DNA of 64,000 nucleotides from Bacilli bacterium. Lineage in GTDB: Bacteria > Bacillota_I > Bacilli_A > RF39 > UBA660. Below the pieces are notes generated by a model. That model had not been told where the DNA came from and did no database searches. It saw only the letters and a list, made by a program, of their open reading frames with translations. Below, piece after piece: positions 765 to 63,188 of the stretch. The stretch lies in NCBI GenBank assembly GCA_017416535.1, contig JAFQCG010000005.1, positions 141,708 to 205,707 of the forward strand, in the 5' to 3' direction. A program made the translations under genes and the position numbers. The first letter of the stretch is position 1, and each line of letters opens with the position of its first letter.

Positions 765-2591
765 TTATTTATCTAGTTTTTTCCATAGTATTGTTAGTAC
801 ATTTAAAATACATAAGAATGTAACTCCAACGTCTGCGAATACTGCCATCCAAATTGTACTTAATCCTAATGCTCCTAGTATTAGTACAACTAATTTTACT
901 AGTAATGCAAATACTATTGTTTGAATTACTTTTTTCTTTGTTATGTTAGAAATTATTATTGCTGTTTTTATTTTTGATAAGTCATCTTTCATGATAACTA
1001 CATCACTTGCTTCTATTGCAGCATCTGAACCTACTTGTCCCATTGAAACTCCAATATCAGATATCTTTAGAACTGGTGCATCATTTACTCCATCACCTGC
1101 AAATAATACTTTTCCATTTTTCTTATATTCTTTTACTTTATCTACTTTATCTTCTGGCAACATTTCTGCATAATAAGTATTTATTCCTACTTTTTTAGCA
1201 ACTTTTTGAACTACTGATTCAATATCACCAGATATAATTATTAATTCTTTTTTAATGTATTTTAGAAGTTCTGTAATACGTAGACTACTCTTTTTAATCT
1301 TATCAGATATAACTAAGTATCCAGCATATTCTTTATCAATTGCGACATGAATAACTGTTCCTGTTTCAGAAATAGGTAGTGTCATTACTTTGTTTTCTTT
1401 CATTAACATTTCATTTCCTACTAATATTTTTTTACCTTTTACTTCACAAGAAATTCCTTTACCACTCATATCTTTATATTTTTCTGCTTCTAATAATTTT
1501 TCTTCATTTTTTTCTTTAATAGCAAGTGCTATTGGATGAAGTGAATATTGTTCAGCAGATGCTGCTAGTTGTAAGAACTTATTTTCTTTCATTGCAACTG
1601 GGAACACTTTTGTTACTTCAAATACTCCTTCTGTGATTGTTCCAGTTTTATCTAATACTACATAATCTAGGCTTTGTAGATTTTCTAATTCTTTACTACC
1701 TTTAATTAGTATACCTTCTTTACTAGCACGTCCAATTCCACAGAAATATGCAAGTGGAATTGATATTACTAATGCACAAGGACATGATGTTACTAAAAAT
1801 ACTAATGCTCTATAGAACCATACTTTAAATTTTTGTCCAAATAGTACAGGTATTACTGTTAATAGAATCGCAGATATTATAACTATTGGTGTATATACTT
1901 TAGAAAACTTTGTAATAAATTTTTCTGTGTCTGCTTTTTTTGATGGAGATTTTTCTATTATTTCTAGAATTCTTGCTGCTGTTGATGTTTTATATGTAGA
2001 AGTTGCTTTTATTGTTAGTACTCCTTCTTTATTAATACATCCACTTAATACTTTATCATCTTTATTTACACTTCTTGGTTTTGACTCTCCAGTTAATGAT
2101 GATGTATCTAAATGAGATTCTCCTTCAATTACTACTCCATCTAATGGAATCTTTTCTCCTGGTTTTACAAGTAATATGTCATTTTCCTCTACATCTTTTA
2201 CTTTTACTTCTACAATCTCATTATCTACTAAAAGATTTGCTGTATCTACTCTTAAATCCATTAATTTTGTAATTGATTTTTTACTATTATGTACAGCTAA
2301 ATGTGAGAAATATTCTCCTACTTGGAATAATAACATTACCATTACAGCTTCTTCATTATTAGCAATTGCGAAAGCACATAATGTTGCGATAATCATTAGA
2401 AGATTCTCATTAAAGAAAATTTTCTTTTTAATATGATTATAAGCATTAATATAAATTCCTGTACTTATAATTGCATATGAGGTTGCAAGAAAAGCTAATT
2501 TAATTTCATTTTCTTCTATAAATAATGAAGATATAAATAGTACAATACTGATTAATATTTTTATTAAATCTTCATTAAAAAACTTTTTCAT
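765..2591 (-). CDS. heavy-metal translocating P1B-type ATPase (Cd/Zn/Co type), no N-terminal HMA domain
   Basis: SCPCAL (CPC transmembrane metal site), DKTGTIT phosphorylation motif and GDGVNDAP hinge; 608 aa. Confidence 0.85.
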   Translation of the reverse strand: MKKFFNEDLIKILISIVLFISSLFIEENEIKLAFLATSYAIISTGIYINAYNHIKKKIFFNENLLMIIATLCAFAIANNEEAVMVMLLFQVGEYFSHLAVHNSKKSITKLMDLRVDTANLLVDNEIVEVKVKDVEENDILLVKPGEKIPLDGVVIEGESHLDTSSLTGESKPRSVNKDDKVLSGCINKEGVLTIKATSTYKTSTAARILEIIEKSPSKKADTEKFITKFSKVYTPIVIISAILLTVIPVLFGQKFKVWFYRALVFLVTSCPCALVISIPLAYFCGIGRASKEGILIKGSKELENLQSLDYVVLDKTGTITEGVFEVTKVFPVAMKENKFLQLAASAEQYSLHPIALAIKEKNEEKLLEAEKYKDMSGKGISCEVKGKKILVGNEMLMKENKVMTLPISETGTVIHVAIDKEYAGYLVISDKIKKSSLRITELLKYIKKELIIISGDIESVVQKVAKKVGINTYYAEMLPEDKVDKVKEYKKNGKVLFAGDGVNDAPVLKISDIGVSMGQVGSDAAIEASDVVIMKDDLSKIKTAIIISNITKKKVIQTIVFALLVKLVVLILGALGLSTIWMAVFADVGVTFLCILNVLTILWKKLDK

Positions 2592-2605
2592 ATACTACCT
2601 CCATT

Positions 2606-4270
2606 TTATTCATCTTTAATAAATTTTTCTATATCTTCAGTGTTTGAATATACTGTTAATCCTGAAATTGAATATGAGTTTATTCCAGCTTCTTGTGTCA
2701 TAAATACTCCTGGAATTATATCCCATGGTTTTGTTGTTGATAACACAAGAGTATTTGTTCTTCCTGTTAAAAGATTTGAGAAAGCAAAGCAACATGCATT
2801 AATATGCATAAAGTTTGCTGGACGAACTGGATTGTTTAGTAATTTTTCAAATATAGTTTTCTTTTCTTCAAATTTCTTATGACATGAACCACAGAATTCA
2901 ATTGTACTTTGATTTAGTGGAACTTTGTTTCCTAAATCAATTCTTTTATGATTTAAGTATGCACCCTTACCTTTTATGGCATAGAACATTTCATCTAATT
3001 TTGGTAAGTACATTATTGAGAATTGAATTTCTCCATTATCTACAAATGCAAGTTGTATTCCCCAGAAAATTGATTTTTTCATATAATGAGCTGTTCCATC
3101 AATTGGGTCAATTATCCAAGTTCTATTTTGAATTGTATTTTCATTATTAAATTCTTCTGTTACAAAGTTATCATCTGGAAAACTATCTCTAATATGATCA
3201 ATTAGTAATTTTTCAACAATTAAGTCTGATTCTGTTACAAATGTTGAATCTTCTTTTTCTCTAAAAGTGATTTTTACTAAATTCTTTTTATTAATTGTTG
3301 ATGTTGCATCTTCAATTGCATTGTAAGCTAAATCAAATTCTCTTGAATAGTCATGATTATCAAGATAGTAATTCATCATATATTTTTCTAGTTCTTCTTC
3401 ATATGGCATTCCATCTTGAGCACCTTTTATTCTGATTTTCATACTAGACGCATATTGAGCTTTTACTACTGACTCATATAATGTAAATCCTTTGATTAAA
3501 GCAGCTGCAAAGTTACCATTAAATGTATCTCCTGCTCCTGTTGTGTCTTCTACCTTATCAACTTCTATTGCTGGTATTTTTACAATTTTTTCTCCATCAT
3601 GATAAGCTACTCCATCTGGTCCTAATGTAACGATTAATTTATTAGGATATTTTTCTAGACATGATTCAATATCTGTTGTTTCAAATATTATTTCACATTC
3701 TTTTTTATTTGCAGTTATATATGTAATTTTATCAATTAATTCTTTGTTTCCTGGTTCTGATATTGCTAACCTTTGTGGTCTACATGGAGTAAGTACTAGT
3801 GGAATGTTATTGTCATAACAGAAGTTAATTAATTCTACACTTACTTCTTTTGGTACTTTTAATTGAGCTATTACCATTTTTGATTGTAAGAAGACTTTTT
3901 TATATCTTTCAATCATTTCTGGTGTAAAACTATCTATTGCTCCAGCAAATCTTTCAATATCATTATCTTTTGTCTTTTCATCAATTACAATTTTTGCATA
4001 GTCATTACTTAGTCCATCAATTACTTCAATATTATTTGTTGTAATGTTATTGTATACTAGGTTTTCTAAAATTCTTTGTCCTATTGAGTCTTTTCCTAAT
4101 CTACTTACCATTGTTACTTTTGCTCCAGCACGTGCTGCAGCAACTGCTTGGTTTGATCCTTTTCCTCCTGGTAAAACTAGTGATGGACATTCTGGTATTT
4201 CACCTTTTTCGTTTTTATAATAGAATTGGTCTAAAGCACATCCTCCAAAGACACAAATGTCATACTTCAT
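2606..4270 (-). CDS. bifunctional fusion: PfkB/ribokinase-family sugar kinase (N-terminus) plus inositol-monophosphatase-family phosphatase (C-terminus)
   Basis: N-terminal GGKGSNQAVAAARAG and DTTGAGDTFNG (PfkB signatures 1 and 2). C-terminal FVTEE...WIIDPIDGT...KPWDIIPG (IMPase metal-binding motifs). Single 554-aa ORF. Confidence 0.75.
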   Translation of the reverse strand: MKYDICVFGGCALDQFYYKNEKGEIPECPSLVLPGGKGSNQAVAAARAGAKVTMVSRLGKDSIGQRILENLVYNNITTNNIEVIDGLSNDYAKIVIDEKTKDNDIERFAGAIDSFTPEMIERYKKVFLQSKMVIAQLKVPKEVSVELINFCYDNNIPLVLTPCRPQRLAISEPGNKELIDKITYITANKKECEIIFETTDIESCLEKYPNKLIVTLGPDGVAYHDGEKIVKIPAIEVDKVEDTTGAGDTFNGNFAAALIKGFTLYESVVKAQYASSMKIRIKGAQDGMPYEEELEKYMMNYYLDNHDYSREFDLAYNAIEDATSTINKKNLVKITFREKEDSTFVTESDLIVEKLLIDHIRDSFPDDNFVTEEFNNENTIQNRTWIIDPIDGTAHYMKKSIFWGIQLAFVDNGEIQFSIMYLPKLDEMFYAIKGKGAYLNHKRIDLGNKVPLNQSTIEFCGSCHKKFEEKKTIFEKLLNNPVRPANFMHINACCFAFSNLLTGRTNTLVLSTTKPWDIIPGVFMTQEAGINSYSISGLTVYSNTEDIEKFIKDE

Positions 4271-4341
4271 TATGTTCGCCTACCTTCTTACATTTTTCAT
4301 AATAATTATAACAGAAAAATTTATAAAACAGAATATACTTT

Positions 4342-5298
4342 TTAATTTAATAAAAAGTTCATTATTAAGTCGATAATAATTTTCTTTTCTTTAGGATTAC
4401 TTTCTGCAATTAGTAGAGTTAATGCTACTAAGGTGTTATTATCTATAACCTGTTTATTATCTATATATAATATATTATAAAATTGTAGAAAATATATAAA
4501 TAGTGTTGCAGCTATTCGTTTATTTCCATCTATAAAAACATGATTTTTTACTATCATATATAGAAAGTTTGCTGCTTTTTCTTCTGTTGAATTATATACT
4601 TCTTTATTATCATAAGTTTGATATATATTATTTATTATTGATTCTAGTCCATTATTTCTTTCCAATGCAAATAATTTGCTTTCTTCATTAAATCGAAGCT
4701 TTTTAATTATATCCATACAATTTCTATATGTTATTTTTTTAGTACTTGATTTTCCTTTTACTTTTGTTAATGTATGATGGTCATAATCGTCTAAAATATC
4801 TAATGCTTTTGAATAGTTACCTATTACTTTTAAAATTTCTTTAGCATCATTATTTTCTAGTCTTTCATCCATTCTATTAGCAATATCAATTAGTTTTACT
4901 GTTTTTTCTAAGTAATCTAATCTTTGCTTATTTACTGCATATCCTTTTAACATATAGTCTTTTAATACTTTTGTTGCCCATTTTCTAAATGCTACTCCTT
5001 GTGTTGAATTTACTCTATATCCAACACTTATAATCATATCTAAGTTATAATATTCAACCATATGCATCTGAGTTTTTCCTTTAATTGCACCGTGGTCAGT
5101 GGTGTTCGCAAATTTTGCGACAACCACTTCATTACTTAATTCCTCTTTAAGTGCATTATTTATATGCTTTCTTATTGTTTTAAAATCTCTATTAAATAAT
5201 TGAGACATTTGTTGTGTATTAAGCCACACAGTTTCATCTTGCATATTTACTTCTAGTTTTACATTTTGATCTTCAAATAATATTATTTCATTTTTCAT
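4342..5298 (-). CDS. RhuM-family protein with C-terminal Fic/Doc domain
   Basis: N-terminal region is RhuM-like (VWLNTQQMSQLF...TIRKHI). C-terminal HVFIDGNKRIAATL fits the Doc/Fic core HxFx(D/E)GNKR. RBS GAAGGAGAT upstream. Confidence 0.7.
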   Translation of the reverse strand: MKNEIILFEDQNVKLEVNMQDETVWLNTQQMSQLFNRDFKTIRKHINNALKEELSNEVVVAKFANTTDHGAIKGKTQMHMVEYYNLDMIISVGYRVNSTQGVAFRKWATKVLKDYMLKGYAVNKQRLDYLEKTVKLIDIANRMDERLENNDAKEILKVIGNYSKALDILDDYDHHTLTKVKGKSSTKKITYRNCMDIIKKLRFNEESKLFALERNNGLESIINNIYQTYDNKEVYNSTEEKAANFLYMIVKNHVFIDGNKRIAATLFIYFLQFYNILYIDNKQVIDNNTLVALTLLIAESNPKEKKIIIDLIMNFLLN

Positions 5299-5777: not shown

Positions 5778-6999
5778 ACTTTACCTCCTTTAGTTTATGT
5801 AGAAGTTTAAATATATAATAGTTTATATTTACTGGTAGTTCATGTTCTCCAATTAGTTCTTCCACATAACCATTAAATCCTTTTTTAAATTCATATATTC
5901 CATAATTATCTGGATGTTCATTTATGTTTTCCGGTATTCCATAAAAATTATGTTTTTTAAAACCATTTTTTATTCCATATTTTATTAATTCCCATTGAAT
6001 TAAGTATTGTGAATTAAATTTCATATATTCCTCATAGTTTCCACTTGATAAATATATTACTTCTGGTTTAATTAACATAAACATTGATCCTGATAAGGTT
6101 ATTATATCATTATTTGTTTTATTTCTAATACTATTTGCTTCACTTATTTTATTTTCTAAGGATTTTATTTCTTTTAATAGTTCTTCTTTTCTAGTTATCT
6201 TTATATTTTTATTTTGTAATTTCTGTTCTTTTTCTTTCTTTTCAGTATATAATTTTTCGACATATTCTTTTAAATTAAGTTCTGTAATAAAGTATTTAAC
6301 TTCATTTTTATCATGAAATATATTATACATATCTTCATAATATTCTTTTTCTCTTGTTGTGAAGTTTCTTCTTATACCTGTTTCTTTTAATATATTATTA
6401 AATATAGGTAATTCCTCATATGATAATTCTTTTACTTTAATACCTATTTTCTCTGCTTTTTTTATAATGTTTCTTGTATTTTGTTTCATTTCTTTTAAAA
6501 TATCTTCTTCTGTTTTTCCTTCTAAATTTAGTGAAAACATCCAAGTTACTTGTTCATTTTCTTTTATTGATTTCTTTTTAAATCCTTGGTCTTTTAAAAA
6601 GTCTAATACATCTTTATTATCAATTCCATCTTTTACAACATCTCCATTTATATCTCTTTCCTTATTAATAACATAAGGATCTATTCTTAATACATAACCA
6701 TTTTTCTTTTTTATATATTCTATAGTATTTGTGATAAAAAAAGACAATAATTCCTTATTGTTGTAGTCGATTAGAAATCCTCGAGGACTATAAAATTCAT
6801 AATTATTTAAGAATCTTTTTTTACTTAATAACATTGCCGATGCGATTATTTCTTCATTATTTTTTACGCCTATATAATTTACTTTCCAACCTTTTTTACT
6901 TCTTAATTTTGCTATTTCTGGTGATGATAAAAATGTTTTTAAAGGATGATTATTCCAATGACTTTTATATTCTTCTTCTGTTAGATCAAAAAATTCCAT
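5761..6999 (-). CDS. FemAB-family peptidoglycan interpeptide-bridge aminoacyltransferase (FemA/FemB/MurM-like)
   Basis: NYIGVKNNEEIIASAMLL, RIDPYV, EELPIF, coiled-coil insert and YNFYG align closely with S. aureus FemA. Confidence 0.85.
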   Translation of the reverse strand: MEFFDLTEEEYKSHWNNHPLKTFLSSPEIAKLRSKKGWKVNYIGVKNNEEIIASAMLLSKKRFLNNYEFYSPRGFLIDYNNKELLSFFITNTIEYIKKKNGYVLRIDPYVINKERDINGDVVKDGIDNKDVLDFLKDQGFKKKSIKENEQVTWMFSLNLEGKTEEDILKEMKQNTRNIIKKAEKIGIKVKELSYEELPIFNNILKETGIRRNFTTREKEYYEDMYNIFHDKNEVKYFITELNLKEYVEKLYTEKKEKEQKLQNKNIKITRKEELLKEIKSLENKISEANSIRNKTNNDIITLSGSMFMLIKPEVIYLSSGNYEEYMKFNSQYLIQWELIKYGIKNGFKKHNFYGIPENINEHPDNYGIYEFKKGFNGYVEELIGEHELPVNINYYIFKLLHKLKEVKYALHL

Positions 7000-7041
7000 A
7001 TATTCCTCCTTTTAGTAGTATATGAGGATATATGGAATTTA

Positions 7042-7719
7042 TTATTCTTTATTTTTCTTTTTCATTTTATCTAATTTTTTTTGTATTTTTGTGACAAATT
7101 TATCTTTATCAAAGATTGTAAATATAAATAAGGCAATTACTACAAATAATAAGATTAATGTAATAAATAATATTATACTAAAGTAATCTTGTTTTTCTTT
7201 TGTTGTGTCTAAATAACTATTTGTAAGGTATGTCTCGAAATTATCTTCTGTAATAGCTATTTCATTTTCAGTTGGGACAAAATCATTTATTTTCTTTATT
7301 GCTATATTTTTTAAATCAGCTTTTATTATTTCTGGATAACCATATACTTTTTTTGCTTTTGGTTCTTCTTTTGTTCTTTCATAAGTATAGTCTATTATAT
7401 CTTTATACTTATCATAATCATCTTCATTTATAGCAATTAAATATGTATGCCATACACCTGTCTCTTCTTTTTCAATAACAAAATGAATACCTATATTTTC
7501 TTCTTCGTAGTAAGCAAACATTTCTGACATTTTAGATACTTTTATGTATGAATATTCATCAACACTTTCTACTTCTCCCCATGGTTTAGCATCGTACTTT
7601 TCTATAAATAATTTATATGAACATACAAATAATATTGTAATTACTATAAAATAAACTATACATAATACTAATTTTATTGTAAGTTTTTTTTCTGTTTTTG
7701 TTTTATTTACCTTCTTCAT
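7042..7719 (-). CDS. hypothetical membrane protein with N- and C-terminal TM segments
   Basis: ORF with TM helices at both ends; no recognisable motif. Confidence 0.4.
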   Translation of the reverse strand: MKKVNKTKTEKKLTIKLVLCIVYFIVITILFVCSYKLFIEKYDAKPWGEVESVDEYSYIKVSKMSEMFAYYEEENIGIHFVIEKEETGVWHTYLIAINEDDYDKYKDIIDYTYERTKEEPKAKKVYGYPEIIKADLKNIAIKKINDFVPTENEIAITEDNFETYLTNSYLDTTKEKQDYFSIILFITLILLFVVIALFIFTIFDKDKFVTKIQKKLDKMKKKNKE

Positions 7720-50972: not shown

Positions 50973-51559
50973 ATGAAAAAGAAATTTATATTAGTTAGTT
51001 TATGTGTAATATTATTATTTGTTATTGCATGTAGTGTGTTATTTGACTTTAGAAAAGAAGATAATAACCTAAAGAAAATTACTGTTGCGGAGGTTGCTCA
51101 TACTATTTTTTATGCGCCTCAATATGTAGCACTTGAACTTGGTTATTTTGAAGATGAAGGTCTTGATGTAGAACTTATGCTTGCAAATGGAGCTGATAAA
51201 GTTACTGCGGCTGTGTTATCTGGAGATGCAGAGATTGGATTTTCTGGAAGCGAGGCAACAATTTATGTGTACAATGGTGGAGAAAAAGACTACTTACAAA
51301 CTTTTGCTCAATTAACACAAAAAGATGGTTCTTTTCTAGTATCTAGAAAAAAGATTGATAATTTTACATTGGATGATTTAAAAGGAAAAAGAATTATTGC
51401 TGGTAGAGCTTATGGTATGCCAGAAATGACATTAAAATATGCTATTAAGAAAAATGGTATTGATCCTGATAAAGAACTTGAATTAGACACATCTGTTGCT
51501 TTTGCAGCAATGAGTGGTACATTCATTGCTGGTGAGGGAGATTTTGTTTCATTATTTGA
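50973..51559 (+). pseudogene. 5' part of an NMT1/ThiY-type ABC substrate-binding lipoprotein gene (sulfonate/nitrate/thiamine-precursor class), interrupted by a mobile element
   Basis: Lipobox LLFVIAC; ...AGEGDFVSLFE, then the sequence enters the element. The ORF-track product from 51560..51677 (HNVTKRMYFCTFLF...) is junk read-through. Confidence 0.7.
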
Positions 51560-51560
51560 A

Positions 51561-51577
51561 CATAATGTAACAAAAAG
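51561..51577. repeat. left terminal inverted repeat of the element
   Basis: CATAATGTAACAAAAAG; reverse complement present at 57547-57563. Confidence 0.7.
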
Positions 51578-51601
51578 AATGTACTTTTGTACATTCTTAT
51601 T
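51578..51601 (-). terminator. perfect palindrome AAGAATGTAC tttt GTACATTCTT just inside the left element end, probable terminator for the first cargo gene
   Basis: 10-bp perfect stem with 4-nt loop; on the minus strand it is followed by TTTTTGTT, which is the TIR. Confidence 0.5.
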
Positions 51602-52394
51602 TCATTACTTTTTTTATTACTTTTTCTATATGTCCTTTTTTACTTGCTTCAAAGTGATTTGTATTTTCTTCTTCTAACATATAATTTATTCCTAACTGTT
51701 CAAGTAAATCTGGTTCAAATACTACTATTCCATCACTTCTACTTGATGTTACTTTTTTAATCATATCATCAAGCTCTAATACTAAGGAATTATTTTCTTT
51801 TTCTCTATCAATGTAACTTCCTACTACTAGCAATTTATTTAAATCTACTTTAGTTAAGTCTATGCCTTTAAAATTATCTTGTTCAAATCCGTATTTTGGA
51901 TTAACTATTAGTTTTAGCATTTCTACGATTAGTTTTTGTCTTTGTGTAAAAAATCTTTTAAAATCTTCTAGATAATATGGATTTGCTAGAGGAGTTCCGA
52001 CAATCGATGGATGTATAGCTATTACTTTATCTACTCTTTCTGAGGTGGTTGCTAGTGATGCAATTATTCCACCGAAACTTTCTGTTACAAATATAACATC
52101 ATTTAGATTAGATTCTTCTAATGATTTTATTAAATTATCGGTAAAGTTCTCTGCATTATATTGTTCTTTATTTTTAGAAGATAGTGGATAATCATAGAAC
52201 CAAGAGCCTGTAAACATATTATGTCCAGGATCAAATGTATAACCGGTTTGCTCTAAAGCATGAAATCTATGTTCCATTTGCCCGCCAATATAAATTATTG
52301 GTTGTTCATTTTTATTTAATTTCTTTTCATCAATATATAAACTACCAAGTTCATTAGGTTTATATCTTTTCTTTTCATTACGATAGTTAATCAT
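51597..52394 (-). CDS. hypothetical protein, possibly alpha/beta-hydrolase fold (VTESFGG nucleophile-elbow-like motif)
   Basis: 265-aa ORF inside the element. The [ST]xSxG-like motif is tentative. An 8-nt overlap with the upstream ORF suggests coupling. Confidence 0.4.
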   Translation of the reverse strand: MINYRNEKKRYKPNELGSLYIDEKKLNKNEQPIIYIGGQMEHRFHALEQTGYTFDPGHNMFTGSWFYDYPLSSKNKEQYNAENFTDNLIKSLEESNLNDVIFVTESFGGIIASLATTSERVDKVIAIHPSIVGTPLANPYYLEDFKRFFTQRQKLIVEMLKLIVNPKYGFEQDNFKGIDLTKVDLNKLLVVGSYIDREKENNSLVLELDDMIKKVTSSRSDGIVVFEPDLLEQLGINYMLEEENTNHFEASKKGHIEKVIKKVMK

Positions 52395-53256
52395 TCTTTT
52401 CTCCAGAATTATTGTTTCTTTTTTTAGAAAACATAAGCGGACTTATACCTCTGAATGTTTCCATCTCTTTCTTTAAATATTCAGCTTCTTGCCATGCTTC
52501 TGGAAAATATTCTTTTGTTTTTTCAAATTCATAACGATATTCTGCGAAAGATGGACTTTCTACGTCTATTAGTGGTTCTAATAGTAAAATCATATCCGCT
52601 AAAGCATTTGATTCACTTATCATTTCTTTATATTTTTCTTTTTGTTCTTCTGTTCCTTCGCTTATTTTTATAGAATGTTTTGTTTCCATATTATATGTTT
52701 CTTTAAACCAATCACTTCTTAATATTCTTTTTGTTAATACATCTACTAAATAATCTACACCATTAATATTTACTTCAACAAATGGTCTAGTTTCTTCTAG
52801 TCTTACACCTTCTCTTGTAGGTGAATCATATATTGCATCTATAAATGTTGCGTCATCAAATATTGCTGATACAGCATAGTTAGGGTCATATACACAACTA
52901 CGTCCTACTTTTACTGGTGGTCTTGTTAATCTTAACGAGATTGGAACACTTCCAGTAATATAGATTGATTTTTTTCTAAATTCTTCTTTCATCCATAATG
53001 GTATTCCACATATTCTTGGATGTTCTTCATAACAATAATGATTTGTGTCATCAACTATTTCTAATTTATCTAAATCAAGTGATTGTTTTGTTGGATCAAT
53101 TAATTTCTTTGAAACTAATGCTTCCATTATTGTTGCTTCTATTGATTCTCTTTCTAGTGGCGGCATATCAGGATGAGCCTCAATATAATCTAGAATATGC
53201 CAGCATCTATAAAAGACATCATTTGTTAATAATTCATAATCTACTAAACTTGCCAT
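52387..53256 (-). CDS. hypothetical protein (cargo of the mobile element)
   Basis: 289 aa with its own RBS AAGGGGGAA; no recognisable motif. Confidence 0.4.
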   Translation of the reverse strand: MASLVDYELLTNDVFYRCWHILDYIEAHPDMPPLERESIEATIMEALVSKKLIDPTKQSLDLDKLEIVDDTNHYCYEEHPRICGIPLWMKEEFRKKSIYITGSVPISLRLTRPPVKVGRSCVYDPNYAVSAIFDDATFIDAIYDSPTREGVRLEETRPFVEVNINGVDYLVDVLTKRILRSDWFKETYNMETKHSIKISEGTEEQKEKYKEMISESNALADMILLLEPLIDVESPSFAEYRYEFEKTKEYFPEAWQEAEYLKKEMETFRGISPLMFSKKRNNNSGEKND

Positions 53257-53277
53257 AGTAATTCCCCCTTAAGTGCC

Positions 53278-54210
53278 TCATATTATAACAAATCTATTGT
53301 TTTTAGTCAATTTGTTAAGTCTTTTATTAGCTTTATTCCAAAGATATTCACTTATTATTGGTGGGAATTTTTCATAATCTTTATACATTATCCACTTATT
53401 TTTAGGAATCAACTTTACTTTTTTAGTCATATAGTCAATTACTTCACATTTTCCTCCAACATAATATCCTTTATATTTTGGATTTCTTATTAATCTTGAA
53501 AGTGCTGTTGCACTAAAGTGTTTATTATTAGTAGTTTTTATATTTTTGGATTTTAAAATCCTGGCTATTTCGTGAAGAGATTTATTTTTTGTTGCATATA
53601 ACTTATATATTTCATTTATTATATTTGCTTGTTGATTATTTATTATATACTTATCATTTATTTTTTTATAACCATATATTTTTTGATTTCCTAAGATAGT
53701 TCCTTTTTTTATTGATTCTTTCATTCCAAACTTTACTCGTTCTGATAGCTTTCTTATTTCATCTTGAGCAAGGGAAGACATTATTGTTAATCTTAATTCA
53801 CTATCAGGTAATATTGTATTTATATTATCATTTATAAATAATACTCCTACTCCATTTTTTAAAAGTTCTCTTGTGTATTTTATACTATCTAGTGTATTTC
53901 TTGAAAAACGGGATATTTCTTTAGTAATAATTAAATCAAATTTATTTTCTTTAGCATCATTAATCATTTTCATAAAACTTGTTCTTTTTATATCTGATGT
54001 TCCTGTTATACCATTATCTATATATCCTTTACTATAAATCCAATTTTTATTTTTATTAATTATTTCTTCAAAATAACTTTGTTGATTTTTAAGAGAAGTC
54101 TTTTGTTCTTCGCTTGTTGTTGAGACTCGTGAATAATATGTTACTCTTAGAGGTATATTTGTTAGGGGAATTCCTATACTTAGTTCTTGTCTAACTTTAT
54201 ATAAGTCCAT
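53278..54210 (-). CDS. serine recombinase (resolvase catalytic domain plus recombinase domain, lacks zinc-ribbon/coiled-coil)
   Basis: YYSRVSTTSEEQKTSLKNQ (catalytic Ser region), DLIITKEISRFSRN, C-terminal recombinase-domain-like YGYKK...IARILKSKNIKT...NPKYKGYYV; 310 aa. Confidence 0.8.
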   Translation of the reverse strand: MDLYKVRQELSIGIPLTNIPLRVTYYSRVSTTSEEQKTSLKNQQSYFEEIINKNKNWIYSKGYIDNGITGTSDIKRTSFMKMINDAKENKFDLIITKEISRFSRNTLDSIKYTRELLKNGVGVLFINDNINTILPDSELRLTIMSSLAQDEIRKLSERVKFGMKESIKKGTILGNQKIYGYKKINDKYIINNQQANIINEIYKLYATKNKSLHEIARILKSKNIKTTNNKHFSATALSRLIRNPKYKGYYVGGKCEVIDYMTKKVKLIPKNKWIMYKDYEKFPPIISEYLWNKANKRLNKLTKNNRFVII

Positions 54211-54280
54211 TTTATATACTCTTTCTATTCATAAAAAAATCACATCCTAATTTAGGATATGATTTATTTTGTTATTTATT

Positions 54281-55624
54281 CTAATCTTGTTTTTGTTCTA
54301 AATCTACTGACTTGATAGTTAATAAATATAAGTCATCATTATGTTTAATATAGAAACAGCATTTTGTATGTTTTGTTACTACATAGTACATAATTGGTAA
54401 TTTTAAATTATCTCTTACGTCTAGTAATTCTTCGAACTTTGATATTTTAATCACATTTGTATTACTTGTATCTGGACCTGTTCCATTTTCAACAATTAAT
54501 CTATCATATTCATTTAGAATTTTTTCTACGTATTTATCATAGATTGATTTTTTTCCTCTTAATAAGATTAGTAATCTTAAAGTTTTAATTCCAAATACTA
54601 ACATAGCAATTAGAGATATTATTGATAAAATGCCAAATATAATATTATCTGTTTTTGTATCGATGTTTTGAATTACATAATTAGAATTATTAATATCTTG
54701 ATAGTTTAATTCAATATTAATTGCCTTTTCAGATAATGGTATTTTAACAAACATAGTACTATTTTCAACTGCATTAGAGGCATTTTCAATATTAGTATTT
54801 TTATTTACTCTTAAATATACAGTTAAGTAACTTGTTGTATCTAATCCAAATTGTTGTTTAAAACTGTTAGCTAAATTATTATAGTATGCATAATCAATTT
54901 TAACTTTTTCATTTAAATTATAATTTGTACCAGATTTTATACTTTTTCTTTGATTATTTAATAAAACGTATTCTTTTTCAAAGTAATTATTTTTTGATGA
55001 GCCATCATCTATTGTTAGTTTAGCTACAATACTATAATTGAAATCTACATTTGAAGGTTTTTCAATATTATAATTATATCTAAAATTAATTTCTATATTA
55101 TCAATTAAGTTAGCTATGTATACTTTGTTTTTTCCTAAATAATCTGATTCATAGAAATTATTTTCTTTTAAGTATACTTTGTAGTCAAGATTACTCATTT
55201 CATTATAGTTAATCATTTGATTAGTTGTTTTACTAAAAGCTCCTTGAAGAAAGATGATTGTGATTATGAATAATGCTATGAAAGTTAGAGAGTTTGCTAA
55301 TAATCTTGTTTTATAATCTACGTAATGTTCACTTTTATTAGTTACATTATTTAAAAAACTTTTCTTTTCAGTTTTTTCTTCTATTGCTTCGCTTTCATCA
55401 TATACAAAAATATCATTTTCATATGTTTCTTCATATTGAGGTAACTCTTCATTTTCAGTTTTTATTACTCTTTCTTCATGAGTAATTTCTTCTACTTGTT
55501 CTTCTGTTTGTTCTTCATTATTTAATTCTTTGTTTTCATCAGCAATTTCTTCACCAATTATTTCTTCATCAAATAATTCTTCTATATTTTCACTCATAGT
55601 CAACCTCCTATTTTTACATTTCAT
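54281..55624 (-). CDS. two-TM membrane protein with acidic N-terminus and N/Y-rich extracytoplasmic domain; possibly a DUF5305-like SipW/TasA-operon partner
   Basis: 447 aa. Located immediately downstream of the sipW-like gene with an 11-nt overlap. Confidence 0.45.
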   Translation of the reverse strand: MKCKNRRLTMSENIEELFDEEIIGEEIADENKELNNEEQTEEQVEEITHEERVIKTENEELPQYEETYENDIFVYDESEAIEEKTEKKSFLNNVTNKSEHYVDYKTRLLANSLTFIALFIITIIFLQGAFSKTTNQMINYNEMSNLDYKVYLKENNFYESDYLGKNKVYIANLIDNIEINFRYNYNIEKPSNVDFNYSIVAKLTIDDGSSKNNYFEKEYVLLNNQRKSIKSGTNYNLNEKVKIDYAYYNNLANSFKQQFGLDTTSYLTVYLRVNKNTNIENASNAVENSTMFVKIPLSEKAINIELNYQDINNSNYVIQNIDTKTDNIIFGILSIISLIAMLVFGIKTLRLLILLRGKKSIYDKYVEKILNEYDRLIVENGTGPDTSNTNVIKISKFEELLDVRDNLKLPIMYYVVTKHTKCCFYIKHNDDLYLLTIKSVDLEQKQD

Positions 55625-56741
55625 TTAACCATACTGTAGGTAAACCAAGATATGGTATAACAAATTCTACTGTTCCAATAATTGTATCTTGTTCTACTAC
55701 GTAGTTATCTTCTTTTGCATTAGCATCTCCTTTTGTATATACATAATACTCACCTTTTTCTTCTATTATGTTTACAATTCTATGAACTACTAATACTCCA
55801 TGATATGTATAAGCAATTACTTGCCCTTTTTCTAATTTATCATATTGCTTATCTATTTTTTCAATTACTACTATATCACCTTTTGAAATTGCTTTTTCCA
55901 TACTACCACTTGCAATTGCGACTGCATAGTAATGGAAATATCCAGATGTAAAATATACTAATATTGTTACTAATACTGTAGGTATAATTAAAGACCAGGC
56001 AGATGTTTTATTATAATTTCTATCTACTTCTTGATCTGCTGTTAGATTGAAAAATCCACTTAATTTATATCCTAATAATATTGGTAATAAAAACCTTATA
56101 ATTGATGCAATATACTCATTTGGATTTGGTACTAAAGGTAATAAGTATTGATATAAATTCATTACTAGTAAATATAATATGTTTGGTTTATATCCAACTT
56201 TAAATGTTAAATATGAACATACTATATTTGTGCTAATTGCAGGTAATAATGTTAATGCAAAGAAAATAAATGTATCATACTTTGATGAAAACCCATTATA
56301 AAATATCGGATTTGTTACATCTAAAAAGATAAATAATATACATGATAATATCATTAGTATTTTATTACCTTCTGATTTCATAATAACTTGATATCTTAAA
56401 AATTCTTTTAATATTATTGTTATTATGATTGGTATTATAAATGTTTTTATACCATTTAAAGTATAGTAATTATCAGTTCTTGCAAAACCTATTATTAATC
56501 CTGATAAATAGTATATTAAGAAAAAGATTAACAGAAAAATTATTACATCAAATATAATATCTTTTGTAAAACGATGTCGATCTTTTTCAATTCCAAAAAA
56601 CAACTTAAATATAATTATTGTTAATATTAAAAATACTATTGTTGTGTAATTTCCTAATATGTTATGAATAAAACTATTTAGGATTAGTATGAAAAACATG
56701 ATAAGTTGAAATATTAATAATTTTTTGTACCCTCTTTTCAT
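55614..56741 (-). CDS. SipW-type (ER/archaeal-type, Ser/His) signal peptidase I fused to an N-terminal about 250-aa polytopic membrane domain
   Basis: C-terminal IASGSMEKAISKGDIVVIEK...VLVVHRIV...YTKGDANAKED matches the SipW SGSMEP / HRI / KGDAN motifs. Preceded by about 8 TM helices. Confidence 0.75.
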   Translation of the reverse strand: MKRGYKKLLIFQLIMFFILILNSFIHNILGNYTTIVFLILTIIIFKLFFGIEKDRHRFTKDIIFDVIIFLLIFFLIYYLSGLIIGFARTDNYYTLNGIKTFIIPIIITIILKEFLRYQVIMKSEGNKILMILSCILFIFLDVTNPIFYNGFSSKYDTFIFFALTLLPAISTNIVCSYLTFKVGYKPNILYLLVMNLYQYLLPLVPNPNEYIASIIRFLLPILLGYKLSGFFNLTADQEVDRNYNKTSAWSLIIPTVLVTILVYFTSGYFHYYAVAIASGSMEKAISKGDIVVIEKIDKQYDKLEKGQVIAYTYHGVLVVHRIVNIIEEKGEYYVYTKGDANAKEDNYVVEQDTIIGTVEFVIPYLGLPTVWLNEM

Positions 56742-56798
56742 CCTTTCCCTCCTATATTCTATATACTAGGAAAGACACAATTTTTTTGTGTCTACATT

Positions 56799-57455
56799 TT
56801 AATCTACTGTGTCGTATTTAAGTGTAATGTCACCAAATGAAACATTGAAGTTTCCGTCTGCTCTATTTCCACCAGCAGCATATGATATTTTAACTACAAC
56901 TTTTTCTTTTGTATTTTTTTCTAATTTATGATTGCTGATAGTTGCTTGCGATCCAGATACTGCTGCATCATCTCCAACCTTAACTGTTACTGATATTGAT
57001 TCACAAGCTGCACTAACTAATGAGGCAGTTGTTGTAGCAGGATTTGTTGCTGCACAATATCTAGGTGCTGATTGTCCCTCTACATTTGCAAAGACAATTG
57101 AATTTAAATATGCATCATATTCTCCTTCATTGTGTACATAGAAAGTATATGATACTTCTTGTCCTGGCTGTGTAACGTTTGCTTTTAAACCAGAGATTCT
57201 TGCTCCTGATACTGTTGCTTGAGATGCATAGTATCCTAAATTGTCAGATTGTGCAGGTGTTCCAACAACACTTGTTGTGATTCCTGATTCACTTCCTGAT
57301 AAGTTAATTTTGAAATTTTCACTACTTGGACTTACATATGCACTTGATGATATTGTTAAAGTGTTTGAGAAAGCTGCAAATCCTAAAGTTAAACCAAATA
57401 CAGCAACTACTAGTGCTACTACTGCAATAATTTTTGAACTTCTATTCTTTTCCAT
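56799..57455 (-). CDS. TasA/camelysin (peptidase M73) family secreted fibre protein with SipW-cognate-type signal peptide
   Basis: Signal VVALVVAVFGLTLGFAAFSN (compare TasA GGGTWAAFND). NVTQPGQEVSYTFYVHNEGEY resembles the TasA beta-sandwich core. Confidence 0.75.
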   Translation of the reverse strand: MEKNRSSKIIAVVALVVAVFGLTLGFAAFSNTLTISSSAYVSPSSENFKINLSGSESGITTSVVGTPAQSDNLGYYASQATVSGARISGLKANVTQPGQEVSYTFYVHNEGEYDAYLNSIVFANVEGQSAPRYCAATNPATTTASLVSAACESISVTVKVGDDAAVSGSQATISNHKLEKNTKEKVVVKISYAAGGNRADGNFNVSFGDITLKYDTVD

Positions 57456-57546
57456 ATTATTTTTTCCTTTCTCTATATGACTCCTATCATATTATATACA
57501 TTATAATTATAACAAAATAAATTGTTTATTAAAATACTAAATTTAA

Positions 57547-57563
57547 CTTTTTGTTACATTAAG
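57547..57563. repeat. right terminal inverted repeat of the element
   Basis: CTTTTTGTTACATTAAG; inverted copy of 51561-51577. Confidence 0.7.
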
Positions 57564-57564
57564 A

Positions 57565-57969
57565 GAACCTAATGCATTAGAAATTGAAAAAAATGGATAT
57601 GGCTATGTTGTTGCAAGTGTTGGCGAAATTGGAGGGATTGTTCCTTATACCTCTTATTCAGCAAGAAAAAGTTATATAGAAAATAATAATGATGAAATAA
57701 ATAAGTTTACTAGAGCAATCCAAAAAGGTTTGGATTATGTTCATAATCATAGTGATAAGGAAGTTGCAGAGGCAATACTTGATCAATTTCCAGATACATC
57801 TTTAAATGATTTAGAAAAAGTAGTAAAAAGATATCGAGAAATAGATGCTTGGCCTAAAACAACTAGTTTTAGTAAAAAATCCTTTGACCATTTACAAGAT
57901 ATAATGGTTGACTATGGAGCAATTAATGAAAAAGTTAATTATGATAAGTTGATTTACAATGAAAAATAA
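57565..57969 (+). pseudogene. 3' part of the interrupted NMT1-type ABC substrate-binding protein gene
   Basis: In-frame continuation (E)PNALEIEKNGYGYVVASVGEIGG...KLIYNEK*; overlaps the downstream ABC ATPase start by 11 nt. Confidence 0.7.
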
Positions 57970-58708
57970 ATTATTAAGTATAGTAAATTTAAAAAAAATA
58001 TATCACACAAAAAATGATGATGTATTGGCACTAGAGGATATAAGTTTTGATGTCTACGAAAACGAGTTTATTTCTATAGTTGGACCAAGTGGCTGTGGTA
58101 AATCCACAATTCTCTCAATACTTGCTAGATTAGAAGATAAAACTAGCGGAATTATTAGTTTTAAAGATAATTTAAGTGTTGGCTATATGTTACAAGATGA
58201 TTGTTTATTTGAATGGAAAAGTATTTTAGATAATTGTTTAGTTGGACTTGAAATTTCTAAAAAGAAAACCGATGAAGGTATTGAATATGTTCTGAATCTT
58301 TTAAGGACTTATGGGTTATATGAGTTTAAAGATATGTACCCTTCTAGTTTGTCAGGTGGAATGAGACAAAGAGTTGCATTAATTAGAACCCTTGCACTAA
58401 ATCCAGATGTTTTACTTTTAGATGAACCTATGTCAGCGCTTGATTCTCAATCGAGAATGGCTATTGGAGAAGACATTTATAATATAATTAAAAATGAAGG
58501 TAAAACAGCTATTATGGTAACTCATGATCTTAATGAGGCCATTAGTATGTCAGATAAAGTCATTGTTTTATCAAAAAGACCTGCTACTATAAAAAATATT
58601 TATGAAATAAATTTAGATAGTAAAACAACTCCTATAAAAAATCGTAGTGATGATAAATTTTCTTTTTACTATGATAATATTTGGAGGGATTTAGATGTTC
58701 ATATCTGA
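57959..58708 (+). CDS. ABC transporter ATP-binding protein (nitrate/sulfonate/bicarbonate, SsuB/TauB-like)
   Basis: GPSGCGKST, LSGGMRQRVALIRTL, LLLDEP. Confidence 0.85.
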   Translation: MKNKLLSIVNLKKIYHTKNDDVLALEDISFDVYENEFISIVGPSGCGKSTILSILARLEDKTSGIISFKDNLSVGYMLQDDCLFEWKSILDNCLVGLEISKKKTDEGIEYVLNLLRTYGLYEFKDMYPSSLSGGMRQRVALIRTLALNPDVLLLDEPMSALDSQSRMAIGEDIYNIIKNEGKTAIMVTHDLNEAISMSDKVIVLSKRPATIKNIYEINLDSKTTPIKNRSDDKFSFYYDNIWRDLDVHI

Positions 58709-61942: not shown

Positions 61943-62767
61943 TTAATATCCTTCTTTTAATCCAGCACTATCATAGAATAAACTTCTTCCACCTTCTTGA
62001 TATTTTTTAGTATATCTAAAGTAGACAAAAATAGGTTTTCCGGTAGAAGTTATATACACGTAATTATCACATGTACAACGATCTTGATCAGCCATCTTTT
62101 TTGTTAACATAAATTCATCATCAAATTCATTAACAATATCTTTGTAGTTTATAAAGTTATCTTTTGTATACTCATTTACTTGCATCATTGATATAAATCC
62201 AACCTGATTTATTTGAGTATCATTTAAACTTTCTAAGAAATTAATTACTTCTTTTTTACTATCAATATAATCTTTTATTAGTAAACAATTTATTCGTAAG
62301 TCCGCTTTGCTCTTTAGTTGTTTTATTTTATCAAGTGTGATTGTTTTAGTTTGAAATACTTCATTATTTTTTTCATCTAAATAATGATGTCTACTTAATT
62401 GAATTGATTCAATTGGATACTTATTTAACATTGGAAGTGTTTTTTCTAATAATATACCATTGGTATTAAGTGTAATTCTGGGATCGTATTTTTTTAGTAG
62501 TTTTAATAAATCTTCCAAGTTTTCACAGTTTAGTAGAGTTTCTCCTCCGCTAATTGAAAATCTGCTTATTTTTTTATGTACTATGTCTATTATACTTTCC
62601 AACTCATTTAGATCTAATTTTCCAAAGTTCTTATTACATTCATTTGAACAAAATTTACATTTGGCATTACAAATATTTGTTACATTAATATAAAATGGAA
62701 ATTCATTACATGGTGAACATGCATATTCTTTTATATTATATTTTTTACCATTAACATCTAATTCCAC
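61943..62767 (-). CDS. radical SAM enzyme (small, 274 aa, no SPASM domain)
   Basis: CX3CX2C NICNAKCKFC, SISGGETLL (GGE motif). GTG start preceded by TAGGAAAT. Overlaps the 3' end of the repeat-peptide gene by 17 nt. Confidence 0.75.
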   Translation of the reverse strand: MELDVNGKKYNIKEYACSPCNEFPFYINVTNICNAKCKFCSNECNKNFGKLDLNELESIIDIVHKKISRFSISGGETLLNCENLEDLLKLLKKYDPRITLNTNGILLEKTLPMLNKYPIESIQLSRHHYLDEKNNEVFQTKTITLDKIKQLKSKADLRINCLLIKDYIDSKKEVINFLESLNDTQINQVGFISMMQVNEYTKDNFINYKDIVNEFDDEFMLTKKMADQDRCTCDNYVYITSTGKPIFVYFRYTKKYQEGGRSLFYDSAGLKEGY

Positions 62768-63188
62768 TTTGATTTCCTACTTCTTTATTTATTGGTAAAA
62801 TCATTTTTGAATAAGGTTTCTTACTTGAGAATGAGCTTCCACATGACGGATGTCCTCCAATGTTTCTATTATTTGAACTTCCACATGAAGGATGTCCTCC
62901 TCCATATCCCCAACCGCGACTCGAACCACAAGATGGGTGTCCTCCTCCATATCCATAATCATCATTTGATGTTCCACATGATGGATGTGCCATCATTGTA
63001 ATTTGATCACTTTCTTGAAAATAATTTTCATTAATTTCATATCCATGTTTTCTTAATGCTTTATTAAACACCTCTCTTGATTGTGGTGTTGCGAATAGGA
63101 ACGGACATAAATTTCCTAAATCTTCAACCGATTGAACTGGATTTTCTGAACGTCTAAATATTTTTTCAATTAATTGTTCTTGTTTCAT
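62751..63188 (-). CDS. 145-aa peptide with four tandem G-G-H-P-S-C-G-[ST]-S repeats; candidate radical-SAM-modified precursor or metal-binding repeat protein
   Basis: RBS GGAGGGAAAC before ATG 63188. About 67-aa N-terminal region, then AHPSCGTS...GGGHPSCGSS...GGGHPSCGSS...GGHPSCGSS, and a C-terminal Cys. DNA shows 4 copies of CCACATGA(A/T)GGATGTCC on plus. Confidence 0.6.
   Translation of the reverse strand: MKQEQLIEKIFRRSENPVQSVEDLGNLCPFLFATPQSREVFNKALRKHGYEINENYFQESDQITMMAHPSCGTSNDDYGYGGGHPSCGSSRGWGYGGGHPSCGSSNNRNIGGHPSCGSSFSSKKPYSKMILPINKEVGNQSGIRC

Follow-up and report, generated by a model that had tools for sequence, protein, structure and literature searches.

A short serine recombinase without zinc ribbon or coiled coil, derived by deletion from a large serine integrase, in an island that splits a transporter gene of gut Bacilli

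Introduction

Current models hold that large serine integrases need both a zinc-ribbon domain (ZD) and a coiled coil (CC) for site recognition, synapsis and directionality. In the integrases that have been studied, much of the DNA affinity comes from the ZD and the synapse is stabilised by the CC, and no enzyme without the entire ZD is known to recombine DNA. The crossover dinucleotide of TnpX and TndX is GA. In the structure of the Listeria integrase bound to attP, the recombinase domain (RD) covers positions 1-12, its recognition helix reads positions 9-11 and the ZD motif lies at positions 16-24 (PMC3783163). The Listeria Int-deltaCC construct relaxes DNA and, with PxB as well as LxR substrates, yields small amounts of deletion product (PMC5499577). 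The known gene-intervening elements encode a full-length enzyme and a small factor, such as GirC (58 kDa) and GirX (6.5 kDa) (PMC5595907). The literature searched contained neither an experiment on a ZD-less enzyme nor a natural, selected lineage with the catalytic domain and RD only. Such a lineage would be a natural experiment on what these two domains can do alone.

Here we describe a serine recombinase of this architecture, encoded in a 64-kb stretch of DNA (the window; 26.7% GC) that was analysed as a whole. The hosts of this recombinase and its relatives are uncultured, low-GC Bacilli of gut metagenomes, and all the loci compared below are metagenome contigs.

Results

Architecture of the short recombinase

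The gene (53278..54210, minus strand) encodes a protein of 310 aa that consists of an N-terminal catalytic domain, an alphaE helix and an RD, with no ZD and no CC. The catalytic (resolvase) domain and alphaE occupy residues 21-170 (53701..54150, minus strand; Pfam PF00239), and the RD occupies residues 181-303 (53302..53670, minus strand; Pfam PF07508), its last helix being residues 288-303. Pfam searches matched residues 25-170 to Resolvase PF00239 (E 1e-29) and residues 193-299 to Recombinase PF07508 (E 1e-20), and gave no match in the 310-aa protein to Zn_ribbon_recom (PF13408) or to HTH models, including those of the HTH_7 type. In NCBIfam, the protein aligned to the CcrA/B/C and XisF models (440-560 positions) over no more than their first ~285 positions, fell far under the cut-offs for YneB and Mpi, and scored 27 bits against a cut-off of 110 for NF033518 (IS607-type). 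The catalytic domain begins at residue 21 with no N-terminal MerR-like domain ahead of it, unlike the IS607-type serine transposase.

The AlphaFold2 model of the protein (pLDDT 85.7) comprised the catalytic domain, a long alphaE helix, the RD (residues 181-303, pLDDT >90) and a disordered tail (residues 304-310). The model superposed over ~300 columns on the N-terminal and RD part of the SPbeta, Bxb1 and phiC31 integrases, and also on the engineered phiC31 NTD-RD fragment 4bqq. PDB entry 3g13 aligned to the catalytic domain with an E value of 2e-41, and residues R28, S30, D92, R101 and R104 were invariant among 21 short and 67 mixed homologues. A preliminary description of this DNA had proposed an intermediate-size, 310-aa recombinase without zinc ribbon or coiled coil, citing the motifs YYSRVSTTSEEQ and YGYKK...NPKYKGYYV, both of which are present in the protein. 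The Pfam, NCBIfam and AlphaFold2 results bear this proposal out, and the domain models that it had named as a check gave the expected pattern (PF00239 and PF07508 matched, PF13408 not) with no indication of a canonical small resolvase with an HTH.

With large serine recombinases the short protein shares a catalytic domain with the Ser and Arg residues, a PF07508 RD, its placement in the tree and the layout of its att sites; it has neither the zinc ribbon with four Cys nor the coiled coil embedded in the ZD. It also does not resemble the small serine recombinases, which have a C-terminal HTH and ~180-210 aa, since PF07508 makes up its C-terminal half. The protein stops seven residues past the last RD helix, where its sister proteins carry the ZD. 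A hidden or frameshifted C-terminus was rejected, as tblastn found no ZD or CC remnant in any frame of the 64-kb window. The downstream ORF is not the displaced C-terminus of the recombinase, a possibility that the preliminary description had named as a refutation and itself considered unsupported. The architecture of catalytic domain and RD is real, derived and conserved, and among known enzymes the protein fits best as a variant form of large serine recombinase.

The island and its junctions

The recombinase gene belongs to an integrated island of 6007 bp (51560..57566), in which every gene is on the minus strand. The island interrupts a gene for an NMT1/SsuA-type ABC substrate-binding protein (SBP), whose N-terminal part (50973..51559, plus strand; Pfam NMT1) lies on one side and whose C-terminal part (57567..57969, plus strand), with no conserved start codon of its own, lies on the other. 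The insertion point is TTT|GA|ACC, and joining of the flanks at GA gives TCATTATTTGAACCTAATGCATTAG, which is the sequence of the uninterrupted gene to the nucleotide. The protein encoded by the gene joined in silico reads ...DFVSLF|EPNALE..., in register with 82 uninterrupted orthologues (...DFV(S/T)LF|EPNALE...). In 82 related genomes (80 species representatives and two closer relatives, L091 and L092) the SBP gene was whole and the island genes were absent within 10 kb.

At attL (51538..51579, plus strand) the host B half-site GTTTCATTATTT is followed by GA (51558-51559) and the element P' half-site ACATAATGTAACAAAAAG; at attR (57545..57586, plus strand) the element P half-site CTTTTTGTTACATTAAGA is followed by GA (57565-57566) and the host B' half-site ACCTAATGCATTAG. 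The attB expected from the joined flanks is GGAGATTTTGTTTCATTATTTGAACCTAATGCATTAGAAATTG, with strain-specific sequence on either side, and the attP expected from the joined element ends is AACTTTTTGTTACATTAAGAGAACATAATGTAACAAAAAGAATGTAC. GA was present at both junctions in 13/13 loci examined. The element ends are inverted half-sites of 18 bp, symmetric about GA and identical at positions 4-18 in the window, and the host site is likewise symmetric, with TAATG at positions 4-8 on either side. TAATG at these positions is common to all four half-sites, and TAATGNAACAAAA is common to three of them. The sequence TAATGTAACAAAA has two perfect copies and no others in the 64-kb window. A search of viral contigs yielded no attP junction.

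A crossover at the centre of a 15-bp inverted repeat (GC; GT/AC in the window), which had hinted at an invertible segment, was considered and rejected. This model needed 18 extra host bases and mismatched central dinucleotides, and it was dropped because the extra bases are positions 1-9 of P and P', the dyad axis falls on GA and the empty sites are reproduced. A scan of metagenome contigs with the rejected 18-nt model had returned a single chance match, in a histidine kinase gene.

Comparison of the half-sites among loci revealed that positions 4-13 of P and P' were identical inside each short-form element and that every change was mirrored in the other arm. At position 9 both arms had C in L001, L003 and L008, T in the window and in L093, and A in L009, and at position 12 both had T in L093. 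These changes lie in the stretch contacted by the RD in the Listeria integrase structure. At the outer positions 16-24, which correspond to the ZD motif, the two arms agreed at 3-4/9 positions in short forms versus 6-7/9 in the loci with a long enzyme, L006 and L105, a comparison that involves two long-form loci only and AT-rich, low-complexity DNA. In the short forms, arm symmetry has been kept in the RD part only (positions 4-13, up to 18).

A hairpin with a perfect 10-bp stem (AAGAATGTAC TTTT GTACATTCTT; 51575..51598) lies just inside attL and overlaps P' from position 16 onward. This hairpin probably terminates transcription of the island's last gene, and it may explain why the outer P' sequence has been kept while the outer P sequence drifts.

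Origin of the short form

A search of 5.8 billion proteins identified 18 clusters of 302-317 aa with 72-99% identity to the window recombinase. The next relatives were of 464-476 aa, with 67-70% identity and, for most, PF13408 on record; the window protein nests within enzymes of 460-540 aa at 60-70% identity. No named phage was among the close relatives, the best being 52% identical and in unannotated faecal contigs. In a neighbour-joining (NJ) tree built on the 298 residues common to short and long forms, the window protein and P0001-P0018 (19 short forms) formed one clade, whose sister comprised P0022 (464 aa) and P0019-21 (473 aa).

The short genes are without ~490 bp (~163 residues) between the last RD helix and TTGACT. 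The same sequence, TTGACTAA, closes long and short recombinase genes alike and is followed by 17 nt, TATAAT and the ribosome-binding site of the next gene, so that the two forms share the 3' DNA context TTGACTAA-N-TATAAT. Because the short clade is monophyletic and this context is the same in long and short genes, the reconstruction shows the ZD and CC to have been lost by one deletion of ~490 bp in the ancestor of the 19 short forms. The short recombinase arose in nature, by deletion, from a large serine integrase of ~470 aa, and its architecture is neither a frameshift nor an assembly artefact.

The TTGACT at the edge of the deletion is the -35 box of a promoter of the neighbouring 289-aa protein gene (TTGACT-17-TGnTATAAT; 53282..53310, minus strand; 11/12 match, the best in the region). 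The box marks the downstream limit of the ZD/CC deletion and in relatives provides the ...KFD/...KID stop context. Relatives with 87-99% identity stop at ...NKID, after 302 aa. Compared with these, the window copy has lost 1 nt, and the last 8 residues of its product (LTKNNRFVII) are read-through from the resulting frame shift. The non-conserved tail (residues 304-310 and stop; 53278..53301, minus strand) is accordingly the translated promoter of the neighbour gene, and since the 310 aa of the window protein are for this reason atypical, the typical length in the short family is 302-307 aa.

Other short forms were scattered in the NJ tree, namely P0026 and P0029 (locus L009), P0043, and P0051/P0088. 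These look like independent truncations, P0026/P0029 being the clearest case. The L009 recombinase, an apparently independent short form of 305 aa, ends in an A-run.

The same island at the same site was found with a short enzyme in L001-L004, L007, L008 and L093-L104, and with a full-length enzyme of 464-473 aa that has the zinc ribbon in L006 and L105. Other cargo occupied the same site in L005, with a long enzyme, and in L009, with a short one. In identity matrices the element genes grouped like the flanking spaA, metallophosphatase and SBP genes, which fits co-divergence of the island with its hosts from a shared ancestor in which the recombinase gene had already undergone the deletion. 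The preliminary description had proposed a truncated or minimal architecture that apparently still accounts for the integration. The architecture is indeed intermediate; integration, though, needs no short enzyme, as L006 and L105 have the full-length one. As L006 and L105 have the same site and cargo and the short clade is nested inside long forms, integration is most likely to be credited to the full-length ancestor, with the deletion having come later.

A small ORF upstream of the recombinase gene

An intrinsic terminator (54237..54265, minus strand), kept in all loci, separates the recombinase gene from the DUF5305 protein gene ahead of it, and no clear promoter was recognised before the recombinase gene. 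Between this terminator and the long-form gene there is an ORF of 45-48 aa (M.EYISLEKLYYEVALIINDELY...) in L005 (3932-4069), L006 (4154-4294) and L105 (5754-5900). The whole ORF is thus kept upstream of full-length enzymes. In short-form loci it is cut to 29 aa (L001) or to an ATG and <7 codons (all others); the window has a 6-codon remnant, ATGAATAGAAAGAGTATATAA (54212..54232, minus strand). By position and size, the 45-48-aa ORF is a candidate directionality factor that would have been lost in the short-form loci along with the ZD and CC. Its decay indicates that useless island sequence does decay over the same time span in which the truncated recombinase gene has stayed open.

The 289-aa neighbour and other cargo

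The gene that follows the recombinase gene (52387..53256, minus strand) encodes a 289-aa protein of a narrow family (139 homologues) that occurs with long and short recombinases. As the preliminary description had noted, this ORF has its own ribosome-binding site and no recombinase similarity. The ribosome-binding site reads AAGGGGG, and the ORF also has the near-consensus promoter described above. The protein has a weak papain/transglutaminase-like fold with no zinc ribbon and no coiled coil.

These data bear on the proposal that the short protein needs a partner for activity. Either the 289-aa neighbour or a full-length serine integrase from elsewhere in the genome could be that partner, by way of mixed tetramers or an accessory synapse. 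Throughout the main clade the 289-aa gene adjoins the recombinase gene; purifying selection acts on it, and its promoter, which is strong and conserved, is fused to the stop of the recombinase gene. The directionality factors of serine integrases are described as structurally diverse (PMC11795197, PMC12286644). However, the same protein accompanies a full-length enzyme in L006, is missing from the independent short-form locus L009 and from the long-form locus L105, and lacks the folds that were deleted; moreover, no second serine recombinase was found within the 64-kb window. We therefore consider dependence on a partner quite improbable. The preliminary description had listed as a check whether the 289-aa protein supplies the missing function; the protein is no stand-in for the lost ZD and CC.

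On the other side of the recombinase gene is a cargo operon (54281..57455, minus strand) that encodes a secreted protein of 218 aa whose signal peptide is of the SipW type, a 375-aa protein in which a SipW-type signal peptidase is fused to a polytopic membrane domain, and a 447-aa DUF5305 protein. The order secreted protein, SipW-type peptidase, DUF5305 protein and then recombinase was common to the loci with the same island, and the three-gene set resembles fibre operons of the TasA/SipW type in its arrangement.

Between the 289-aa gene and attL, the cargo differed from lineage to lineage. A 265-aa gene with a weak alpha/beta-hydrolase signal (51597..52394, minus strand) was present in the window, L001, L007 and L093, and nothing was present in this position in L003. 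L006 had a short-chain dehydrogenase here (6722-7642), and L008 (9988-13734) and L098 (10974-14781) each had two WXG100 and two C39-like peptidase genes. At the same GA site, L009 had genes for a 457-aa protein and a TPM-phosphatase-like protein (1448-4700), and L005 had xanthine permease, UPRTase and DUF4153 genes (3860 onward). Elsewhere in the window (61943..63188, minus strand), a radical-SAM-like protein gene (CNAKCKFC motif) adjoins the gene for a 145-aa protein with repeated GGGHPSCGSS, which looks like a modified-peptide (RiPP) gene pair.

Selection on the recombinase gene

Within the short clade, at dS 0.6 to >2, the catalytic domain had dN/dS values (Nei-Gojobori) of 0.05-0.2 and the RD values of 0.07-0.44. 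Long forms gave 0.23-0.40 in the RD and 0.35-0.58 in the ZD-CC. These values are rough, with dS near saturation for many pairs. By this measure the dN/dS of the short clade appears no higher than in the full-length relatives. A ~300-codon open frame has been kept in 19 clusters (90% identity) in a 27% GC genome.

One explanation to weigh here is that the integrase was inactivated by the deletion, which would have left the island locked in place, and that the ORF is a slowly decaying pseudogene that is open by chance. Domains considered essential were deleted, the window copy has suffered its further 1-nt deletion at the 3' end, and the recombinase gene is broken in L094 and L095. These two loci are from one species, L094 is also frameshifted in a neighbouring gene, and the breaks may be assembly errors. 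A decaying relic would be difficult to reconcile with 19 clusters that have an open frame and a dN/dS of ~0.1 at dS 0.6 to >2, with the decay of the small neighbouring ORF in the meantime, and with half-site substitutions that are mirrored between the arms. An inactive relic is hence disfavoured and, in our estimation, very unlikely. Together, the selection analysis and the covariation of the att sites indicate continued use of the truncated enzyme.

The split SBP gene and its operon

The two halves of the split SBP gene had dN/dS values of 0.08-0.15 (N part) and 0.10-0.30 (C part), and the medians for intact SBP orthologues were 0.15 and 0.17, respectively. The split halves thus appear to be as constrained as their intact counterparts. 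Separate translation of the C-terminal half was rejected as an explanation, as neither a start codon nor a ribosome-binding site is conserved there. No reconstituted or full-length SBP with >79% identity was found among 5.8 billion proteins, on which ground we also rejected the idea that element-free strains of the same species account for the conservation.

As a further alternative, the short recombinase could be a domesticated DNA-binding protein that binds RD half-sites at the island ends or elsewhere as a repressor, insulator or site-blocker, the island being fixed. Loss of the ZD and CC should cripple synapsis, the conserved and covarying RD and inner half-sites require binding only, and no excised form was found among the 5.8 billion proteins or in viral contigs. 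Yet the catalytic residues, and the catalytic domain as a whole, are constrained at least as much as the RD, and the constraint on both SBP halves, the C-terminal one startless, is hard to explain without reconstitution of the gene. On this evidence we regard a pure DNA-binding role as unlikely, though less so than the two alternatives considered above.

In the same operon, an ABC ATPase gene (intact in the window at 57959..58708) was interrupted by another element in L001 (~784), L003 (~127), L093 (~4807) and L100 (~4821). The ATPase is cut directly after its LSGGMRQRV signature motif (...CAAAGAGTT|CTACGAATACTGTATACACAC...), and the inserted end is near-identical across species whose neighbouring genes differ by 15-20%. 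L098, which is 99.1% identical to L100 elsewhere, is without this insertion, as is the window. The first gene inside the insertion encodes a conserved 132-aa protein, and GtrA, PMT_2 and glycosyltransferase genes lie further in in L100. No Rfam family was found in the island or around this second insertion. In the four loci with an interrupted ATPase, restoration of the SBP gene alone would not restore transport.

Discussion

A model for the short recombinase

Based on these observations, we incline, with some reserve, to the reading that the short protein is an active recombinase without ZD and CC that would excise the island unaided by any directionality factor. Integration at GA would have been the work of the full-length ancestor. 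The short protein, as a dimer, would bind each junction by its RD alone, and it would be blind to the differences between attP, attB, attL and attR, because TAATG is common to the four half-sites and TAATGNAACAAAA to three. Normally attL and attR are locked by the coiled coil; in its absence the directly repeated junctions could synapse, and the enzyme would then cut at GA, delete the island and restore the SBP (transporter) gene, with no need for a directionality factor. Such deletion would be infrequent, or would occur when read-through of the upstream terminator raises the enzyme level. In its working mode the enzyme would be like a small resolvase or invertase in which the helix-turn-helix has been swapped for the larger RD. 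Several results weigh against this reading: the searches described above yielded neither a reconstituted SBP gene with >79% identity nor an attP junction, the recombinase gene has no clear promoter before it, and the ATPase gene of the same operon is interrupted in L001, L003, L093 and L100.

More tentatively, and with rather less confidence than in excision itself, we suggest that these proteins may form a natural class of "medium" serine recombinases (catalytic domain and RD) in which ZD and CC were lost on one occasion in the main clade and, it appears, on another in the L009 lineage, at the same site, and whose members would be active, excise factor-free and gate an ABC-transporter gene. 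If such a class exists, RD-only site recognition would be enough for site-specific recombination.

If the short enzyme is active, it would represent a path from a unidirectional integrase to a simple excision/deletion enzyme, would extend "regulated gene integrity" switches to a transporter gene, beyond the known examples in sporulation genes, and would be a small scaffold for recombinases, of ~300 aa and with a half-site of 18 bp. An inactive enzyme would instead clearly exemplify the conversion of an integrase to a DNA-binding role.

Comparison with known systems

With the serine integrases (phiC31, Bxb1, A118/Listeria, SPbeta SprA and TP901-1) the short protein has in common its descent, the catalytic domain, alphaE and the RD fold, as well as an att layout with a dyad about a 2-bp non-palindromic crossover and RD contact at positions 1-12. 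It differs from these enzymes in being without the ZD and CC, which define attP/attB discrimination, synapsis and directionality, in its length (302-310 aa in short forms versus at least 440 aa), and in the loss of both the half-site symmetry in the ZD motif and the candidate factor ORF. Two laboratory constructs from this group come near to the natural protein. The phiC31 NTD-RD fragment 4bqq has the same domain content, and Listeria Int-deltaCC, the nearest laboratory precedent for the mechanism proposed here, has lost directionality and has low-level deletion activity on PxB and LxR.

TnpX and TndX have in common with the island the GA crossover and a non-phage cargo element in low-GC Firmicutes. 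The catalytic domain of TnpX (2mhc) aligned weakly to the short protein. They are, in contrast, proteins of 530-700 aa with full C-terminal domains that are only distantly related in sequence, and the island is not of the Tn4451/Tn5397 type.

The small serine recombinases (gamma-delta/Tn3 resolvase and the Hin and Gin invertases) have catalytic domains that align with that of the short protein, and the working mode proposed here would be like theirs, with one DNA-binding domain, identical half-sites and no attP/attB distinction. Their DNA-binding domain is a helix-turn-helix of ~45 aa, however, rather than an RD of ~120 aa, and there is no recent common descent. No accessory sites or enhancer of the small-recombinase kind were recognised at the island.

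The gene-intervening elements (skin/SpoIVCA, SPbeta/SprA-SprB, and gin/GirC-GirX in gerE) likewise combine a non-phage island in a coding sequence with a serine recombinase, exact restoration of the gene (in silico for the island described here) and an interrupted gene that is under selection. Those elements are in sporulation genes of spore formers, whereas the island reported here is in a transporter gene of uncultured low-GC gut Bacilli. In the latter, the enzyme is truncated and the candidate factor is gone, and excision was reproduced in silico only.
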